64,000 nt of DNA from Lophium mytilinum (GCA_010093605.1 MU004192.1:64563-128562); one strand, 5' to 3'; numbered from the stretch's first letter, positions 24,618 to 60,461 are shown. The notes: generated from the sequence alone by a model not told the origin. Numbers and translations are program-made.

Positions 24618-25568
24618 ACACTAACACGCTAACGTGCCAGTGAATAGCAAGCTGCCAACATTGAGTTAGCAAATACACTGCTAAAAGTCATATAGGAGTA
24701 GCTTAGGTAATAGCGAGCAACGCTTATATTGAGATTCTGCTCACGTGATCTTGATCTGTTGTGACTGAGATCGGTTTGATCGCGGAGCCTCAGCTTAATG
24801 ACTAACCAATTCTTGATCGTATGCATACTGTTTATAGCGGAGAACGATGGATCTAATGTTTTGATAGATAAGAAGCTCACCTGGTGGGATGATGCTGCGA
24901 CCTATTGTACCGCACGGCTTCTTTTAGCTTCTTTAGCTAGCATGCAGGCGGATGCAAGGGTAAATACGCCACTACAGCCTCTTCCCACGTCCGGTGGTCT
25001 AGCGCGGAAACTGAGTCAACCCTAGTCAAGGTCCTTTTTCAGTCTATTGCTGAGCTGGTTCAACTACTAATTGGTTAGGAGACTGCTATTCCTCTCTAGA
25101 GGGCGTCCGGGAAGAGTACCTTATACGGTAATTCTGTGGCGTTATTTTAGCGCTGGTTCACCGGACGTGGGAGAAGACTGTAGTTATGGCGAGAAGTCCC
25201 TTTTTGGTCTTGGCAGGGTCCAAAAGGCTTTGTTACGCAGCATCTTCTAGATGCGCTAACCGGAGGATCCGAGAAGAGGCTGTGAATGGGTACGAATCTG
25301 CCTCGGTCTGATCCCTTGTGATTGGTAGGGGTTCAAATGCGTTAGGCTGTGAGTAAGCACCCGCTCATCATCCGCCTACCTTTGTAACCATGCACGGCCA
25401 TGCAGGGACTACTCTGCTGGGTTAAAGTTTGAGGGAACCCCTCCGATCTTTGAGAACGTCTGATCGTCACTTTCATCTCAGATATGACGCTTGGAGGCTG
25501 CATTGCCAGCGCTTTTCAGATTCCATTTCGCGCCTAAGCTCTTTGTTTCCGGCGATTCCGCACTCAAT

Positions 25569-35984: not shown

Positions 35985-37030
35985 TCTAAAGCGTATGTGG
36001 ACTTGATACCTTCTGGTGTGCTTTTTTTTGTTGGTTATGCTTCGTTATATACACCCTTTTCGTTTTCCTTCAATCTGCATATTCCCCTGAGCGCAAATTT
36101 GACTCTACAGCTAGACTCTTCCCCTTGTTGATCTCTGTATTCCTTCAACTTTGTTCAGCTTACAGAGAACCTTTGCATTCCCACATTGCCCAAACCTTCC
36201 TACTTTCTATTTTATGACGGCGTATGGATGCATTTGGTGCGTGGGTGGGTTTAGAGAGCTCTTACCTCACTTCTTGCATGCTTAGATGGGACCTATCTCG
36301 AGTTCTGCGGACCGGAAAGGATGCTTGGGGTGGATGGCTTGACGGTGGGAGGAGAGAATGTGCGATGAGGGAAATCTGGATGTGTATGTATGAGTAGACA
36401 CGATGAACGTGTGGTCGTTATGCTATCTAATCATTTCACGATCGTATCCATTTCAGCGATTCTCATCATGCGTAACTCCGTATCTTCTGAGATTATACAG
36501 ACAGGGCTCTTGGCAATCCCGCTGATCACTTAGACCTATCTAAGTAAGGCTGGGCTCAAAGTCAGGCTGACAGGCGCCGACAGGCCCACATTTCAGCCCG
36601 ATAGCGGCGAGCTGATACGCTGGATCGCATATGCTTAGAACATTGTGCCAAAAGCCCCGTTTCTATAATCTCAGAAGATACGGTAGGCAAACGGCGACCA
36701 AAGGACGCCTCGGCAGCAATTCTTGGAGAGCCGAGTAGTATAACACCTTTTCATTCTCCCACCTTGCTGTTTGGCAAGCCCATCCCACTCTTATAGCCCC
36801 GATGTACTGGCAGAAACTGAGATATTCACGACTCATCCGGTCAATTCTGTAAACTCTGTCTGGGTGGCTGTTGACGTATCACTCCTCGCCCCAGCCACCA
36901 TCCACCTTATTGTAGGTTGAGAGTCAAGAGATGGGAGTTTAATTCGTGGTAGGATAGTGGATATAGTGGTTGTCCACGAGTATTTGTTATTGTTTGGTCT
37001 AAACACTGATCTATGCCGCAAGAATACCCC

Positions 37031-47969: not shown

Positions 47970-50460
47970 GGCTTGTACAACGGGCAGCTAGATTATCGCC
48001 ATGTAAAAGCCGAGGTGTCGGAACAATTTCCGTCGCTGGGTGTCTTGAGGTGTTTCTGATGGAGACTGATTAGAGAGTTTGGACTAGGTAGGAAGAACGA
48101 TGTAATAAATGAGCTCATTTGATTTTCGACAGCTGAATCCGCTATCTTGATCCGTCCTTTTTACTGACCGCTGCAAGTCTTGGAGAGCAGGTTCTTTTCT
48201 TAGATTGCGTTCGCTCATTGGTCTAACATGGAAAGGGTTGTAAGAAAACTGCCGTACGAGGTTTGTCAAGCACCATCATTGGTTTATCGGAAAAACCATG
48301 CGACTTTACAACGGTTAGAAGACATCCGTATGATACTCGTACGACTACTGAGTGCCGGAGCCTTCCCGACATAATATAAAGATGACTTGAAGTCCCGAGA
48401 ACGGTTATCTAAAGCTGTGGCGATGTTATACCGGAGCAACTTCATGATCCAATATCCGTCTTCAGCCTTCCGAAAACCACGCCCATTCTTCTAAATGCGT
48501 CCATACTCTCATTCAGACTCTCCGAACGCCATCAATAGCTTACTCCTCCTTTCATTAGCATCGCTGCCCGGGTCTTCGACTTTATCTAGAACATTGTCCA
48601 CCTCACAGCACTATATCTTCAGCCTCACCTGGCCTCCTTTCTTTCGAACATAACGTCCTGCGACTTCGTCTTGCTGCAATCGCGTCTTAACCTAGCTACA
48701 AAGACTCGGTCAAATGTCTTGCGTCTCCCATGCGGTGTTATTGCTCGAGGTCACCACCAAGCGTTTCGCCTGCTGCGTCTTCGACTTTACCCACTACGTC
48801 TGGTCACAGATATCTGCATACGCTTCTACCACCGCTTATGTTGCCTCTTGGTATTCTCAGAGTTCCGAATCGTACCGAAGTCTCTGCTTTCGAACGTCTG
48901 CTGAACTCGTTAGGCCACCCCAAGCTGTGACAGAGGGATGCGCACAGGTTGGAAGCGTGATCCGTCGTCCTGGATTATTGATAATATCATGAGGCTCCAC
49001 AAGCGGTGGCAAAAGGTGTGCGGACATCTTTGGCAACGCTTTGTACTGGCCCCAGCCCGGCTTAGTAACGACATTTCCCATAACGTACCCACATATTGAC
49101 CACCATTGGACTTGCCGGCGGTCATACTACGTCGAACCCAAGGTTTTCGCGAAGGTTGTAGCGCCCATAGGTTCGATTTGCAATTTGCAGCATGTCACAC
49201 CGTTTTCAAACGCTCCACGACAGGGTTCTGACGCTGGAGCACGAACAATTTGCAAGAAACTCAATCGACCGCTCGGAGATCTTCTCGGTCAGGTAGGTCA
49301 TTGGAACTTCCTTTACTAGACGGCGCCAAGTGCTCTCTCCATGGCATTGTACGCCCGCCGTTGCAGCTGGTAGTCGCCGTCCTGGACCCATGTCTCCGCA
49401 AGAAGACTTTCTTGGAGCGATAGAGGACTCTAGGAAAACAAGGTCGATAATCGTGACTATGAATGTCAAGGAACAATCGAAAGCGAGTGCGAAGACGTTG
49501 GTGTTGCTGGTTACGTTTCAAAATTCGAAATATAAGTAAGGGTCTCTCTGCACTCACACGAAGCCACCAGTGTTCCTCATCTGTTCTTTGGCCCAAAGCT
49601 TCTACTCCCCGTCCGTTAGGGTACTCCTCACAAGAGGATCAGGCAGGCGAACAAACTTGCAGATTGTATCTTCCACCATGCTAATCTGTAGGTCGGCTTA
49701 AAGGAAGAACTTCTAGCCTACTACTTCTAGAACCTCTGTATTGCCCGGCAGAGATACCGATAGGCCAAAATTCCCGGCCGTCTTTCGTGCCGCCAGGCTA
49801 TGGCTTCCGGTCTGCATGCCCGTTTTGAAACGTGATGCGCACGAGCTTTTGCACCGCGGCCACCTGCACGCTGCTGGTCTTAGAAATGTTTTCGAATAGC
49901 AGACTTGGTATACCTGTGAGTCTAGTACAAGAGTCCGGTTCACCAGCCACTTGTGCAAGCCAAAATTGATACCAAAGCAGATGACTTGGTCATACGTGCG
50001 TGGTGCAGGAGGAACGGACGAAGAAGGCCAGGGAGAGCACGTGAGCTTACTATTACCTCATAAGGTAGATCCGAGTGTAGAGATCAGAGGCCAGAATAGT
50101 AGTAAGTAAACGTTGCCTCCTCTTGTTGTTGCGCATATATCCAGTGAACATGGGGTCATTGATGGGCTGGTGATAGCGCATCCTGTTTTTCGCAAGGAAG
50201 ATAGCAATAAGGTCGACATTTTTCCTCGGAAGTTTTCATCGGTCGATGCATCTCACACCAGCCTGATGGTCTTTCGCAGCCCTCGGCAGCTTCGGTTCAC
50301 TCGTAATCAACTTCTTCTCATGTGTCGTCCGGTGGCGGAGCGCCCACTTGATCTCGGTCTTCAGCCTGCGCTTCCTATTGATGAACCGCTCCGTCTCAGA
50401 CCCTTTTTGCCCTCAACCTTCTTTATGGCCTTTAACGTCTTTATCTTCAATTACTTCATG

Positions 50461-50541
50461 TACTCCCATTACTCCCATTACTCCCATTACTCCCATTACT
50501 CCCATTACTCCCATTACTCCCATTACTCCCATTACTCCCAT
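50461..50541. repeat. Perfect 9-bp minisatellite (TACTCCCAT)x9
   Basis: Read directly; followed by degenerate copies (tattgctat tgctccc). Confidence 0.95.
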
Positions 50542-53500
50542 TATTGCTATTGCTCCCAACACTGCCACCCCTCGCACGTAAAGTAGACACTACTCCCCTG
50601 GTGCTCCAGGTAATCATTTGCATGCAAACCTAAACGGCTTTGCGTCTCGAAGACGCAGCAACTAGGCTCATCTACTACACTTCCTATCAAACTACACGTT
50701 TCTATTCCCATGAAAATTTCGTGGATCTAGCAGGGTTCGGGTATCTCGAAGCTATTTCGAGGGCTCAGTCAGGCTTTAGTGCATTCCAGACTCAGCACCT
50801 GGAGCGCTTTGAAAGTGCGGAGACTTGTCGTTTCCCATCGGTTATGGCAAAGTAGATTTTGGTACCATTTCTAAAAGTAGGAGGGTTGGAGGCGTCGAGA
50901 TTCCCGCGGGGACTTGGAAGCCTCCAGTATTAACAAGATTCAATAATCTTAGGCAGCCGAGCGGTAGTGGGCGGAGCGGGAGCATCGAGACCTGAAGGAG
51001 TTGGGGTGGAGATGGTGGATTGCGTTCATTGAAAAGACTGGTGTCGGTTGATGGTGTGGGAGTTACGCAGAGCATTTCCCGATCACCAGAGAAGATCCCG
51101 CAGGGCAGATCATTTGTATCGTTGTGCTCGTTTACTTTTCGTTCGCTTCCCCTTTTGTCGCCGAGTGTCGCTGCGTTGAGCTGTGGACGGTGTTCCTTTT
51201 TTATGAGGGTTGCCGGGGACTAATTTAAGATGGTGGGGTTGGTGATAGTGAGAGAGGGAGCTTACAGCACGCTGCTCCGGTGGCTTCAGGGATGAAAGCC
51301 TTGCGATTGGAAACTCCTGTTACATATCTACTCACCTTCCGCAAGCCTACGGTTTCTTCGTGTAGAACCTTCAGTCCGATCTTATGCTAGTATTTGGGCT
51401 AGCATCGAAGGTGTTCTAAGAATCGAGTCAAACGTCGTGGGAACTGTTCATATGATGTCACTTTGAGTTCAGGATAATGCGCTGTGGAAGCTGGTAGGCA
51501 ACAAGAGACTGAAGCAAGGAAATGAGGAAGTATAGAATTGGAGAAAGAGATGCTAATAAGAAGAGATTCAAGCCGTTTGCAGAGAGTAAGTGTCGGGCCT
51601 GTGTCTGGCTGCATTGAGTGAATGGAGCCTAGTCCAAGCGCCTGGCAAGCAAGTAAACAGGCTCTTACGTAAACGCTTCTGGGGGTATATATTTTACTTA
51701 GTTTTCTTGAACCGCCATGTACACTATGGGTACCGCCCTCATGGTCCTGCATATATACCCACCAACCAAATAAACCAAATCATTACTATCTCTGTCTGAA
51801 AGACCTACTAGTTCTACACGGGTTCGAGTCGCGATCAGGCTGAAGAAAAACCAATCTAATTGGCGTTTCTTTTGGCATTTTGCTAGGGGCCATTCACCCA
51901 CGTGACCGCGCTCACATGTCTGTTTTTGCTTGGTCGACTGGACAATGTGTGTCGCTTCTCAATCGTTTCGCAGGCTTATCCGTCTCTTGAGGGACAACTA
52001 TGAAACGTCAATCAAAACCACGCTCACACAGCAACGTATTGAGAGCCGACCACCCAACCCTGAAAAAGCTCAATCAACAACGACTGGAGTCCCCAAACTC
52101 ACAAAGAATTGCAAACCAGCCCAACCCAGCTGTCAGAAACCCAGTGGTATATCAACTCGAAACCACGTATCGCGACAGACTTACGTCGCCGACACTCACT
52201 GCCTCTCCCTCCAATCTCGCCCACCTCAAACAAGCCCAACCCAGCCGGCAGAATCCCCAAGAATCCCGCCACCATGGCGCTCAGAAACCGTGCCTCCGGA
52301 GAAAAGTCACGTCCTCACAGCTTACCACGACGTTTCCTCTGCCCACAAGCAAGCCAACCCCAACCGGCAAAAAACCCATCCTGGCCCCCATCTCCATCCT
52401 GCGGACTCCCCACCAGCATAACCCCCGCGCTGATCCACCTCTTGCGCCACTCACCACGGCCCTCGATTGCGCCTTGCGCGCGCGATTCGACTCAGCCTCG
52501 TCCCAGGATTGCCACGTTTCAACTATTCCACTCTAGAATCCCACGTTTCACACCCCTTCCCGAAATAGTCCTCGGAGAATATCCACCTGCCCGGTTGATG
52601 GATCGCGGTCCCAATCGCCCAGGATCCGATAAGAGTACATACAGTACGTACTGTAGTAGCATCCCTCCGTCTTAACAGGAATTGCGGAGCAGCAAGGCTG
52701 AGCCCCTAGAGCGCCCCTCCGCGCGAAGGAACGCAGAGCACACGTCGCCGACGTTCCACCAGCATTACCCCAGCCTGTCAGGCCTACCATGTTTCAAAAA
52801 GCCGATGACGCGCTGAGACATGTGGTGTGGTACGCTGAGTAGCGGGATTGAAATAGATTAGAAAGGAGCGGGCAGGAAGATGCTATGTATCTGACGAAGG
52901 AAATAGAATATGTGTATGCTCCACTCTCTTGCGATATTTGACCGCCGCAGATGTCGTATGCCGACCACGTGGGAAACGAGTAAGTAGTAGTACACGAATG
53001 CCCCGAGTCGATAGGGGGCCTTGGCTTTGGGCTAGCTGGCCGGCAGAATCAGAGTCATGGCGCTCATTCCAGAAGGCTTCGTAGAAGTATCCTGAGTCGT
53101 TAGCCAGCCATCCTAAAACGAATCCGTGCAAACATCATTCGACCAACCTTCTAGAAAGCCGTCTAAGACGAAAACACGATAACGGCGGACTAATTCCAGT
53201 GTCATGATGCCAAACCCACCAAATCTCCGCTTCGTTCCATCCTCGGTGATCGCAATGAATTAGAGAAACGAAGTCATGAGATCGGCACGGCGGGCTGAAG
53301 GTGGTCATGAATCTGACTTTTTTGCCTTGCCCCGCCCCGCTGGCGACATCGTCAAACGTCAGAAAAGATACCCATACCAGATCGGCAGTATCGGATCCTC
53401 CTGCCCCTATTCCGGAGCGACGTCGGCGCTTCATGCACCACCAAACCTTGCATCTCATCCCCCATCCCAAAAGGACCCACCAGCAGTGCCACCCCCCACC

Positions 53501-54560: not shown

Positions 54561-56545
54561 TCATAAGCCACAGTTTCTCTCCAGATCCATGGCCTTGACT
54601 GCTTCAGCCTCCGTCTGCTCCTCCTCCTCACCAGTGAGCGTGATCACGCTCTCCATGTCCTCGTCATCATCATCATCCTCGTCGGAGTCCACAAGCGTCG
54701 ACAATGCTGCCTCGTCATCCGTGTCATCTTCGAGGGCACGCGCCATGGCGCTCTTGCGCTCTTCCTTCATCATCGCACTGGGTACGCATGCGACGAGTGC
54801 CACGCTGGCGCACATCCACCACGCGAGGCCGGAATAGCCTATTGTTTGGCCCGTGCTCTGGATCATACCCGAAAGAGTGGGACCAAAACCCCTGCAGACA
54901 CTGGCGGAGGAGGCAGCTGCGCCATTGAGCGTGCCCAAGACTTTCCAGGCGAGGATAGCAAAGACACCTGGGAGGCGAAAACTATGCGGGAGAAGAATCA
55001 AGTAGGGTGTGATGACGTAGAGAAGAGGATAGGTGAAAATCCCGAGCCAGAAGGTGCGGAGGGTCCCGAGACGGAGATTGATCCAAGGGAAGACGATGAG
55101 TTGAGCAAACATTTGGTAGATTCCCTGAACAGATAGAATCATGCCGATCGTCTTGGTGGACAAAGCGAAGCCGCCCTCAAATTTGAGTGGTAGCTGCGGT
55201 GGGACATCGGATTCAGGAAGAGACATGAGGATCGGCATCAACTGCTCGAACGAGACTGTGTGACTGTATGACAATTAGCCAAGAAGTGCGATGAGCGCTG
55301 GGTGCACCTACAACGCGAGGAAGCCGTAACCGATAATTGTCAAGCAGACCTGCCGGCTGAAAGCGTTGCGCCAGCTGGGTTGCTGGACTTGCAGCTTTTC
55401 GGCTGCGCCAATAGAGTATAGCGGAGGTTCCGCGAGGGAGGTTCTAGAGCTACACAGCGTAGGTGAGCTTCCAGGGCTGTGGAACGCAGCCAAGTTGTCT
55501 TCGTTTAGCATCGACCGTGTCTCCTCGAAGTTGGCATCCTTGTCGCTCAAGGGCTCTTCCCCGCCGTTCTTCCGGATCTTCCGTAGTAGCCACCTGCCCG
55601 CCTCAAGCCCGCGGTCTCGCTCATGTTTGATGTCTTCGTGTGTCTCTTCCAAAAAGAGGAATCCCACGACTAGCGCGAAAGCCACTACGAATGTGCAGAC
55701 CAAGTTCGGGAGAAGGTATGGGTAGGAGTCGAAGATTGAGCCAGGAGAGAATATTGAGGGGTAGTTCTTGACAGGCTCCGTAAGCAGTCCGCCAAGCCCG
55801 GATCCAAAGATGGTGCTGAAGAGGATTAGTCTGCGGTCTGGATAAGGCTGTGGTGTTGCATACCCAAGACACCAGATTGATGGCATAATAGAAAACGCGC
55901 GGGCTGTTTGCACATTTATTAGGCGATTTCCTGCGGATTCAGAGCGGAGATCTTACGTCGGTGTTTTTCGTCAGTGACCAGCTCTGCGACTGTGGTTTGT
56001 AGTACTGCAACGTTCCTGTGACGTGTGAGTGGTCGCTCGCTAATCGCTGCGAGGATCATCACGTACCCGTTCAACAATCCACCCATTGCGCGCGCGAACA
56101 GCGCCATTGGCAAACTCTTTGCAAAACCGAAGAGACACATGCTCAAGCCAGTGCCAAACAGACCTCCGAGGAAACAACTCTTGCGCCCAATCTTATCACT
56201 CAGACGCCCCCAAAGCATGCTCGATGCACACTCGGCAAAGGCAAAGGCGGAGGTGACCATGCCAACGTACATGGCGACTTGCGCCTTGTCTTCGGTGACG
56301 TGGAACGACTGGACCATGTAGTAGGCGTAGGGGAAGATGGAGGTGAAGGCGATTGGCTCGCATATGCGGCATAGTGCTGTTGAAGTAAGTCATTTGAACA
56401 CTTAAAGGTGCAGTACAGCAGGCAATGCTGTAATTGAATGGGAATGGCGGGGCAGCATACCCAATATGGCCATCTGCTGGGTGGGAAAGGGCGTCTTGTC
56501 CCTCATTATGGTGGCGGCCCCGCGCTTGCGAGCCAGAGAAGGCAT
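54561..56545 (-). CDS. MFS transporter (YCR023C/ZIFL-like), acidic C-terminal tail, apparent internal in-frame deletion
   Basis: FPTQQMAIL/LCRICEPIAFTSIFPY, WGRLSDKIGRK, GGLLNG/NVAVLQTTVAEL, YPYLLPNL, LEETH, GTLNGAAASSASVCRGFGP; multi-exon. Confidence 0.9.
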
Positions 56546-58642
56546 GGTGTATGGAGGAAGAAGAGCAGACGGAATGGTGTCAGTCAACTCGGTCAGTGAC
56601 GAGTTCGTAGAGGGCGGCGGCGGTCAGGTTTAGTATGAGAGCAGGAGGATTCGAGCCACTTTTCATAGGGCGGTCAGGGGAGGCTTGTTTGATATTAACG
56701 TGGGCGTCACTCGAAATAAAAGTAAGGCAAGATTTCAGTGGCGCTCTGGAGGCGGTAGGCCTTGCTCCGGCGGACAAGGATGATGGCAGCGGGGAGGAGG
56801 CGGAGAATAGCGGCGACGATTGCTGTGGATAGTCGGCACGGCAGCACACTGACGGGCGTCGACAGGGCGGACGGTCAGGCATTTTGAGCACATTGGGGCG
56901 GGTGGGCTGCTTCTGGCGGAGCAATTGACTGTGCGATGTGATAGGCGCGTTGGCAGGGCGGGCAGCGGGCAGCTGGCAGACAGGCAGACAGGCCGTGACT
57001 CCACGATGGGGCTTTTCCAAGGTTGGTGACCAGCACAGGCATGCATTTCCCCCCTGAGGTTGGGCACGGCCGGGCGTTTGGTGGTACAGAATCTCGCGGC
57101 GTCGCTGGCGGGGCACGACGGGGCCCGTGGCAGTGGGAAGCTAGCCGGCGCAAAACAGGCAAGGCTTTGGAGCTTGAGCGGCAGCGGAGGAGGAGGACAG
57201 GAGGACGGAAGGGGTGGGATGTGCTCGGCGTGCCTGTGGATTCTGCCCACTAGAGGCCACATGTTTTGCCCGTGTGGTGCCCATGACGGCCGCCAGCCCA
57301 GACGTCGATGAACACGACCCGGCAAACCCTCGCGGGCTGCGCTAGCCCGCGCTAACCACTGCTTCCGGCTCCCCGGGTTTGGCTCAGGACCGCGGCCAGT
57401 GCGCATCCACTTTGATCCTCTCCCTGCGCAGTGATCTGCTGTGCGTCCCACCCAGATTCCACGCCCCCCCTCCCCCCTGGGTCCTGCTGCTGGCAAGGCG
57501 AACCCGACATCCATCACCACCATCCGGCCCAGAAGCTGCTCGGCCTCTTGCCCGCCAGCCGCAGCCGCACGGCTTCAAAACCACTTCCCCGCCGACCGCG
57601 AGCGCAACGACTGCTTCTTGCTTCTTTGCACCAGGCTCAGGGGCGCCAGGGGCAGCGAGCATCGAGATGCTTCCGTGTGCTGGCGGCGAGTCAGAACCTC
57701 GTGCTGGGGCAAATTGGAGCGCGATCAGCTGCGCGCACGAATAGCAGCTTCGGGAGCCGCGATAGTCCCGGGCGCATCAAATGGCGGTGAATTGCGGGCG
57801 TCGCCAGCAGAGGCCCGTACAAAGGCCTCGTTCCCCCCGGCTCCCGGCAAGACGTCGCAGTGATTGGCACTGCCAGCGCGGGCTCAGCACAACGTCGCGG
57901 TGCCGCCTTTGCGGGCGGCCTGAGGATGCGATGGATGTGGCCAGCGCGGTGGGCCTCGGGAGGATGCCATGGATGCCAGCAGCTGGGCGTGACGACGGCG
58001 ATGATGCAACTGTCTGATCCGACAGCCCTGTCACTCCTGGCGGGAGTGGACGCGTTGCCTCAACACCACGGAGCCGTGTCGCGGACGGGTCCACTGCGAC
58101 TCAATGGCGAGGCGTGAGAGGCCGTGCTGGCACCATGAATGGAGGCCGGCAGCCCGGATGTGCGCGCAAACCGTCATCAGCTGACTCTTTCTACTGGTGC
58201 GTGGTTGAACGGAGCGTGGGTCCGGGAGAGCTTCCGTCGCATGTCGAGCGAGTCGTAGACGCCGTCTTCGGGTTGCCGACGCTGGCCATGCAGCGGACCC
58301 AACGGCCGTGGCATGGCCACAGCATGTGTGATGTCTGGTGCGTGAACCCTGTTCCCTACCCTCGAGGGCGGTGAAGGCTGATTTAGGGCTGGGGGCTGCC
58401 AATTGGCCCAAGTGGCTTGCATATTCCCACGCGAGATTGACACGATGGACAGGGGCAAGCTGCACGTTGAGACGACCGGCCTTCGTAAGCGCCTTCAAGT
58501 GCCGCGCAGCATCGGGCTCCTGAACGTTGATTGCTGCGCTGCCAGCGACGACGCTGCCAGTGGTAGCGCCCCGACCATGCCCTGCGAGCCGGCACCACCG
58601 TTGAGACCAGCGTCCGGGGCTCCTGGCAAGTGGACTCCAGGG

Positions 58643-59354
58643 GGGCTACAGTTTGGATTGCCTGTATCTTGGCGGCAAACGTTCTACGATGCCTGAAAAC
58701 GCCACGCAGACGCTAGAGGCGTCGAGCGATGCCAAATTCAGTGTAGACCACTGCAAATCAGCACCACACCCCGGCCCTCAGCGTGCACAACTCAGCAGGG
58801 CTGCTCAGCCATCACGTGATAGCCGAAAGCACCCGCCAGCGACACGCCGCTTGGGAATTCCACCTTGCAGCAGCTGGTTTCCCCGGTCGCATGTCCTCTA
58901 TATGTGCCTGTGAGGTGTGTAAGAGGGAGAGAAGAGGGCGGGGGGAGGGTAGAAGATAAAGGGGAGGCGTGCACGTGCATGGCACGTGCTGAGTTGGCCG
59001 AGCAACCACCAGATAACATAATACTCAGCCGCCCCCCAACCCTCTTCTCTCCCTCTTGCACACCTTACACCTTACAACTTGCGCAACCGAAATGAAGCAC
59101 AGCCTCACTAAGAACGTTTATAACTGTGTCGCTGGCGAGTGCTTTTAACCTTCACACCTAATTTCTCTAGGTCACGTGAGCGTTAGCCCTGCGCACGCCG
59201 TGTGAGTTGTGCATGCCAGAGAGCGTTGCATAGACATGGGTGCTCGAAGCTACAGCCATTTCTGGCCTGAAGCGAGAGCGCTAATGTCCGGGTGGCGTTT
59301 GTAGGCATCGTGAAACGTTTGCCGCCAAGATACAGGCAATCCAAACTGTAGCCC
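58643..59354. mobile_element. Non-autonomous foldback/MITE element, Mutator-like, 712 bp, with 9-bp TSD
   Basis: 41-bp perfect TIR GGGCTACAGTTTGGATTGCCTGTATCTTGGCGGCAAACGTT at 58643-58683, reverse complement at 59314-59354; direct repeat ACTCCAGGG at 58634-58642 and 59355-59363; further internal inverted blocks; no transposase ORF. Confidence 0.88.
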
Positions 59355-60461
59355 ACTCCAGGGGCTCCAAGGGCTCCAAGGGCTCCAAGGCCTCTCGAAG
59401 CGGCCAGGCGAAACAATGGCCCGCGTCGTGAATTGAGCAGGTGACCTGTCGCTGTCCCGGGATCGTGGGTCAGATTTCTCCGATTGATCTCCTCCCACAC
59501 TCCAATTCAGACGTCACCCTAGCCCAGCCGCGACCCACAGCCTGCGCAGTCTGGCAGCAGTGCACACAAAAATGCTGCTGACCGCCACTGCAGTTGCCTT
59601 GGGCTACTGTGGGCATCCGTTGCCCGACGCTGCGAGGTCGTGAGAGGCAGTGGTGCCAGCTCACATTCACTGTGACACAACGTCTCTTGGGTCCGCCTGC
59701 TGCTGTTGTGACACCGTCCGGGTCCTGTTCGAGCCCGAGACACAGGACGCCCGCCGTTTACGGTGTGAGAAACGTTCCAATGGACCGCCCGCATGCTGCC
59801 CGCCGTCCGCGCCGTTATCGCTCCCAGTCCAGCGGCCGCTGTGCAACTGGACCGAGCCCAAGTGGATGGCAGCAGGCTCGATATAAATTGGCGAATGCTC
59901 GTGTGCCCGACTTCTCTGGCTTCTCCCGCGCTTCGATGACTGGACTGTCGCATTCTCACACCTCGCTCCACTTCCTTGGGACGGCCGGTGAAGCCGGGCG
60001 TACAGAGTGCAGCGCCTGCACCTCAGTCAGGCTGCCCATGAGCCCTTTGCGCGAGCCCATCTGACTGCTCTGGCGCGCTGTCGGATTCTTCTCCGAGCCC
60101 GCAGTGTCGTGGTCCCAATCGAGAGCTGGCATGTCTTCCCGTGGCCCTACGAGTTATTGAATCTGACTTAACGCGTAACGCTGCATCGCCCGCAACAATC
60201 TCGAGCTTACCACAAGGCCGCTGCTGCCCGTCGCTGCCCGATCTGCGATGCCACAAATCAGACTGTGTGTTTCTTGTTGAACGAGGACCAGAGATGACGC
60301 CATCAGGGTGCTCACTGTGCGAGCGATCGTGAGACTTTTGGTGTTTTATGGGGACGAGCATCGCCTACTCTTAGCGGCCAATCATCGCCTCGCCCGCCGG
60401 CTAGCGCTTGCTCAAACCCTCCGCTGGACATCGTGAAAGTGGACCATCGCGACTCAACGAT

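Follow-up and report, generated by a model that had tools for sequence, protein, structure and literature searches.

A1, a short non-coding element in the 64,000-nt stretch of Lophium mytilinum DNA analyzed here (GCA_010093605.1 MU004192.1:64563-128562; referred to below as the window), carries the tips of one long MULE family on a body that is shared with short copies bearing other tips. Sequence comparisons point to a probable explanation, namely that recombination replaces the tips of this non-autonomous MULE and thereby changes its transposase partner; we infer the long-to-short direction, the repair mechanism and the specificity of the tips. A1 by itself is ordinary, fungal Mutator MITEs being known. 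What stands out is the pattern of tips and partners, together with a conserved chassis in the long elements.

The conflict between tip and arm is seen at the left end of A1. Positions 1–40 are identical to long family A (40/40) and match the short copy B1 at 17/40, whereas positions 81–120 match long A at 16/40 and B1 at 38/40. The 41-bp TIR is 41/41 identical to an end of the long A copy at C1:3456215-3483239, and over positions 1–45 the tip is 97% identical to long A. The match stops at 69–75 bp of the 309-bp long A TIR, and 40-mers from position 81 on show 17–23/40, which is background. The switch in similarity spans the ATGC..AAA box common to all copies, in a zone of approximately 20–40 bp.

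Tips at positions 1–45 match one of five long families in nine of the ten short copies (84–100%). The tip of A2 is 91–93% identical to long A2, those of B1–B4 are 86–91% identical to long B, that of the short copy C1 is 86–91% identical to long C, and those of C2 (95–100%) and C4 (84–93%) both match long F. A long partner for the C3 tip was searched for and not found, the best match being 66%. Identities to related families are intermediate (A1 to A2 86%, C2 to C 77%) and those to unrelated families are 37–68%. The same tip is present at both ends in nine of the ten copies (39–45/45), including copies in which the adjoining arms differ by half; the ends of C3 match each other at 28/45. The intermediate that would be expected, with a different full tip at each end, is not present among the ten short copies. 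Positions G2, A6, A8, G9 and T12 and the ATGC and AAA boxes are invariant in all tips. The tip of long G (L192:3147-3191) looks chimeric, with C-like first 12 bases and an A-like sequence from about position 18; it differs by 4/45 transversions from A and 9/45 from C, and its exons are nearest C.

The trees took in one of the three long A copies (that on contig C1) and one of the four E copies, while A2 and F were each represented by a single end. The tip tree (32 ends, 53 columns) rejects a clade of all short copies with p-AU 3e-9. The arm tree (110 columns) splits short from long elements with support of 83/93, and rejects the groupings of A-short with A-long (AU p 5e-7) and B-short with B-long (2e-4). 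The arm tree carries a long-branch warning, and RIP may draw the AT-rich long rows together; the less-mutated long B and E ends nonetheless group with the other long rows. Tips and arms do broadly go together, B with B and C with C, so simple co-descent accounts for part of the pattern.

The features of A1 and of long B are listed in Table 1. The first-pass annotation had described a 41-bp perfect TIR and an exact 9-bp TSD, and both are borne out at the coordinates given there; the TIR in addition goes on to 74 bp at 89% identity. The nested inverted blocks that it had listed (58784-58794/59203-59213, 58812/59172 and 58921-58938/59040-59057) are present at those positions, and the loop, put at less than 100 bp, is 87 nt between the innermost arms. 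A single-strand DNA fold of A1 gives -215.2 kcal/mol compared with a shuffle mean of -119.7 (z -16.7; 0/20 shuffles as good). The fold is real, but to describe it as a whole-length hairpin is slightly generous: the 191 pairs across the centre take in about 54% of the bases, and at positions 62–150 the arms are only 47% identical to each other. An artefact or chance hairpin is ruled out by the shuffles and by read run X1, which crosses both junctions without differences (X1 may be the source data). A structured RNA family was also rejected, the Rfam matches being of the hairpin type only and far under gathering scores. A1 has no open frame of 150 aa or more.

Table 1. Positions of features in A1 (window coordinates) and of the long B element
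Feature	Position	Strand	Remarks
Left TSD ACTCCAGGG	58634-58642	+	only flank length duplicated (2-14 tested)
A1, non-autonomous MULE element	58643-59354	.	712 bp, 56% GC
Left tip, 41-bp perfect TIR	58643-58683	+	
ATGC..AAA box	58689-58703	+	present in every short copy and long family
Left outer arm, type X	58704-58770	+	57/67 to B1, 30/66 to long A
Left inner arm	58800-58917	+	104/117 to B1
Innermost inverted arm, with 18-bp purine block	58909-58945	+	pairs with 59033-59069; 37 nt, 89%
Centre with CACGTG palindromes	58947-59062	+	106/115 to B1
Captured exon piece, host Dynamin_N-domain GTPase gene	59074-59124	+	45/51 to C1:3057719-3057769
Right outer arm, type Y	59203-59279	-	64/77 to short copy C1, 53/77 to B1
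Right tip, 41-bp perfect TIR	59314-59354	-	
Right TSD ACTCCAGGG	59355-59363	+	
Host 9-bp-unit tandem repeat	59364-59390	+	adjoins target site, outside element; whole repeat 59356-59391
Long B	C10:1913354-1916735 (L073:3355-6736)		open frames, barely RIP-mutated, exact TSD GTACAACAT

Searches of the host assembly (43.4 Mb, 49 contigs; the one genome compared) gave ten short copies of 585–742 bp, a lower bound as are all copy counts here. Nine have exact 9-bp TSDs, all different, and one has a TSD with one mismatch. Counting only the nine copies other than A1, eight have an exact 9-bp TSD with its own sequence; a TSD arising as a by-product of the adjacent 9-bp tandem repeat was rejected on these grounds. 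The proposal of a non-autonomous, multi-copy fungal MULE family is upheld by the ten short copies with distinct 9-bp TSDs, whose ends are shared with long elements that carry remnants of a MULE transposase. The copies are short, non-coding, bounded by TIR and TSD and fairly uniform in size, as MITEs are, but high copy number is not seen. The A1 family is MITE-like with a low copy number, and is longer than the usual MITE size, described as less than 500 bp (PMC3227409). As for the label Foldback, the shape fits, but no subterminal tandem-repeat array was found in A1, nor any direct-repeat array, only an ATGC motif that occurs twice at a spacing of about 31 bp; A1 lacks the tandem arrays that mark the Foldback-type elements Tm1, Muta1 and Galileo.

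Two further relatives are degenerate and were excluded from the identity matrices and trees. One, at C10:1916872 (L073:6871-7444), is 135 bp downstream of long B and has an apparent 10-bp low-complexity TSD and another tip again, for which a long partner was searched for and not found. The other, at C16:191196-191620, is a damaged copy of 425 bp with a tip 35/45 to E; a TSD was looked for and not found, and it was the only result of the search for short copies with E tips.

The body of these elements is better conserved than their ends. Arms and centre of A1 and B1 are 85–92% identical (left arm and centre), whereas the tips are 42% identical and differ by 19/45 transversions; across the family, variation is greatest in the first 45 bp. 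An earlier view that selection had kept the ends perfect while inner arms diverged therefore fails, in that tips vary most and arms and centre are 85–92% identical across the family. The right outer arm of A1 is nearer the short copy C1 (83%) than B1 (69%). The mismatch between the two arms of A1 comes not from gradual decay but from the presence of two old types of arm, from a short deletion and from the captured exon piece. The orientation of the centre relative to the outer arms varies among short copies, which is expected from recombination between inverted arms.

The exon piece at the position given in Table 1 matches a coding exon of the host Dynamin_N-domain gene with a genome-wide E value of 3.6e-10. 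Of the six differences, five are changes from C to T or from G to A when the host exon is taken as reference. The piece stands in place of the mirror arm segment. Copy A2 carries 80 bp of the same exon, and the other eight short copies carry none. With a host gene fragment between its TIRs, A1 can be classed from its sequence as a minimal Pack-MULE.

The first 69–75 bp of A1 recur at both ends of three long A elements (3,858, 10,341 and 27,025 bp), the two larger of which contain nested inserts. All three have exact 9-bp TSDs and 309-bp TIRs and have been destroyed by RIP; long A is full of stops. In tblastn, the 3,858-bp copy could be aligned with the transposase of long B, which has open frames (E 8e-25 and 1e-18). 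The search for a MULE transposase flanked by the same TIR led to family A, which has the A1 tip and remnants of such a transposase. Long A is missing from the 21 PF10551 hits because of its heavy RIP mutation. The protein of long B has a MULE domain (PF10551) at 38.8 bits against a Pfam cut-off of 27.6 and a SWIM domain also above cut-off, and close relatives of this protein carry DBD_Tnp_Mut. Protein searches gave plant MuDR-like proteins at 28–36% and one unnamed match at 48%; no named fungal relative of the long B transposase was among the matches. At what we take to be the sites of the DDE triad, long B has N where the second acidic residue would be expected, and the same holds for five of the six long elements compared.

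The TSDs of 12 long elements comprise eight that are exact 9 bp, two exact 10 bp and two imperfect, and the TIRs of the long partners are 197–309 bp. For the MULE superfamily, TSDs of 8–11 bp are described (PMC6446971). By its TSD, TIR and the ends of its partners, A1 is assigned to this superfamily, and family A is most likely its mover. A1 shares its ends with RIP-destroyed long A, so this likely mover is dead in the three copies found and A1 is probably stranded. The other PF10551 loci (20 stretches), including the possibly intact MULE at C2:1523762, do not share A1-type ends except for long B. A 2,856-bp MULE at L072:3871-6726 (C2:1522870-1525725) is unrelated; its TIRs (132 bp) are 98% identical, its MULE domain is open, and it is possibly intact. 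Long MULE copies at C10:349425-404272, C1:3456215-3483239 and C20:311248-331146 have grown to AT-rich blocks of 20–55 kb by nested insertions.

Tip replacement may be pictured as follows. The short family would derive from an old element of the same MULE clade, with arms and centre kept as one body. A MULE DDE transposase acting in trans would bind both tips of approximately 45–60 bp, excise the element and insert it with a 9-bp duplication. Where excision or breakage had occurred, repair with a long element as template would swap one tip, by recombination or template switching at the shared ATGC..AAA box, and the new tip would be copied to the opposite end by conversion, aided by the inverted arms. 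The matching transposase would then move the re-tipped element. The outermost 45–60 bp or so may have been replaced several times in this way by tips of different long families. The same process could flip the centre and mix arms between copies, and repair of a like kind could have captured the 51-bp host exon piece.

Conversion could instead be neutral, with long-element tips overwriting those of other copies ectopically (or exchanging with them) and any transposase of the clade moving any copy through shared motifs. The positions and boxes invariant in all tips would suit this, and cross-mobilisation through a minimal terminal motif has been proposed in the description of the coral CMITEs (PMC2872659). 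It is unlikely, in that the tip groups of the long elements follow transposase relatedness, nine of ten short copies have the same tip at both ends despite arms differing by half, and maize MuDR is described as strongly favouring its own TIR group (PMC10401008).

Two other histories dispense with tip replacement. Each short lineage may have split together with its long partner, with point substitutions keeping its tips in step with the transposase and the body conserved for a function such as transposition enhancer, promoter or hairpin RNA. Arm subgroups do partly follow tip groups, and the long elements keep their non-coding parts far more conserved than their exons, so strong non-coding constraint is possible in this clade. 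This history would nevertheless need convergence to 41/41 with long A beside an arm only 4/67 transversions from B1, and recombination would be needed anyway, the left arm of A1 being B-like and its right arm C-like; this history is improbable. The least probable is the model implied by the first-pass annotation, in which A1 arose simply by internal deletion from an autonomous long-TIR MULE now lost or outside the assembly. A distant homology does link the short arms with long TIRs (B2 and long B are 70% identical over 190 bp), and Epichloe EFT-26m is described as derived by deletion from a MULE relic (PMC3227409). The similarity of A1 to long A, however, ends well inside the long A TIR, arms or centre are shared by 0/12 long elements, and one parent cannot account for five tip types.

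Further support for a link of tips with transposases comes from six long elements of five families, compared by transversions only, which RIP does not create. Exons differ between deep families by 17–26% transversions, and four-fold sites by 36–40% against B, whereas a 345-bp intron differs by 1–7% and a 380-bp 5' module by 3–7%. The exons of B and E are close (5–7%) and their tips differ at 11/45. Tip groups follow transposase relatedness (B/E, A/A2 and C/F/G) and intron and module are shared, so the tips appear to travel with the transposase exons on a shared non-coding chassis. RIP convergence as the source of the likeness in intron and module is countered by the transversion-only counts and by long B, which is hardly RIP-mutated. 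Their likeness between families may be maintained by constraint or by conversion.

The intron is at L073:4946-5294 in long B, with counterparts in L031, L138, L192, L183 and L186, and the exons that flank it are near saturation. If retained, it would place a stop right after exon 1, ahead of the second catalytic position. A conserved RNA structure in the long B intron is not supported (z -1.44), and there is no Rfam match. The 5' module (L073:3640-4022) has a canonical-looking intron on the opposite strand, with a GTGAGT donor, a branch-like ACTGAC and a TAG acceptor, a hint of divergent transcription with splicing. Indels of 1 bp between families in this module speak against a protein.

A broader proposal can be made tentatively, and is well short of the confidence placed in tip replacement. 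Specificity may reside in a set of tip and transposase exons that can be swapped on a common non-coding chassis (inner TIR, the approximately 380-bp 5' module and the 345-bp intron), with one non-coding parasite switching among at least five transposases by capturing tips of about 45 bp at a fixed motif and outliving partners killed by RIP. It would be a DNA-transposon counterpart of SINE tail swapping, and would offer natural matched pairs of enzyme and tip.

The long repeats of the host genome show a strong RIP signature by the dinucleotide rules (TpA/ApT 1.7), and a Fungal_trans domain is detected in the genome. A1 is flanked by a divergent MFS gene (exon 56078-56374) and a ubiquitin-conjugating-like gene, whose start codons, as predicted from sequence, are about 2.1 kb and 1.1 kb away, respectively. 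Four read runs were compared at the locus. One air-metagenome contig (X4, depth 2.6, 25-nt short side) fuses the flanks with one TSD-like copy and is a weak candidate for an empty site in a relative. Run X3, whose identity as RNA is a guess, gives a 2,177-nt contig of high depth that runs from window position 59325, in the right tip, into the downstream gene, with little coverage inside A1; the contig start is a graph break and cannot be read as a transcript start. Two more short elements in the window (36478-36683 and 24971-25184), with 38–40-bp inverted ends about 130 bp apart, are probably unrelated MITEs. A tandem repeat of about ten 9-bp units at 50445-50543 lies within a 158-aa frame.

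The A1 family bears on the origin of non-autonomous elements and on how they retain a partner; the CMITEs, as described, posed the same puzzle of interiors conserved over TIRs (PMC2872659). Five natural pairs of tip and transposase on one body would be a test bed for the determinants of MULE specificity, and partner switching would be a survival route for a small element whose partner has been killed by RIP. An intron that hardly varies between exons close to saturation deserves its own study. Searches of the open-access literature, from which most subscription papers are absent, turned up the precedents cited here but none in which a fungal MULE had its tips replaced across several families of transposase.

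Among known systems, EFT-24m and EFT-26m of Epichloe festucae are described as fungal and non-coding, with 9-bp TSDs, long imperfect TIRs (115–116 bp) and degenerate copies, and EFT-26m has a long MULE relic as partner, all as in A1 (PMC3227409). Compared by description, EFT-26m differs in being a deletion derivative of its parent with about 96 copies (PMC3227409), whereas the A1 family has 10–12 longer copies that share only about 60–75 bp with five long families. Pack-MULEs are likewise described as non-autonomous MULEs with host gene fragments (PMC5225508); in the A1 family the fragment is only 51 bp (80 bp in A2), from one exon and in two of ten copies. Tm1 Mutator/Foldback elements of Meloidogyne have long TIRs, a foldback shape, 9-bp TSDs and MITE-like members, but their TIRs are described as holding internal repeat arrays, absent in A1 (PMC3169594). 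Galileo of Drosophila mojavensis also has long TIRs and a foldback shape, with chimeras whose ends and centre come from different subfamilies, but is described as a P-superfamily element with internal repeat arrays in its TIRs and 7-bp TSDs (PMC3573991).

The closest parallels concern the exchange of ends. In the description of maize MuDR, which cycles between heteromorphs and homomorphs, recombination of divergent TIR clades uncouples TIRs from interiors and conversion re-matches the ends; whole TIRs of 150–250 bp are exchanged and heteromorphs are common (PMC10401008). In the A1 family the change is confined to the outer 45–60 bp or so, the non-coding body being common to all; the long elements have intron and 5' module in common but keep each tip with its transposase exons. 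Coral CMITEs are described as MITEs with interiors more conserved than their TIRs, but are of the piggyBac/TTAA type with 13–16-bp TIRs and one family matched to an autonomous element, their origin being left open in that account (PMC2872659); the A1 family has a matched long family for nine of ten copies and a switch zone that can be mapped. SINEs, of which A1 is not a member, are described as having a conserved body that takes the recognition ends of different autonomous partners in the form of LINE-derived tails, but as retrotransposons they do so by template switching at the RNA level and at one end only (PMC5804259).
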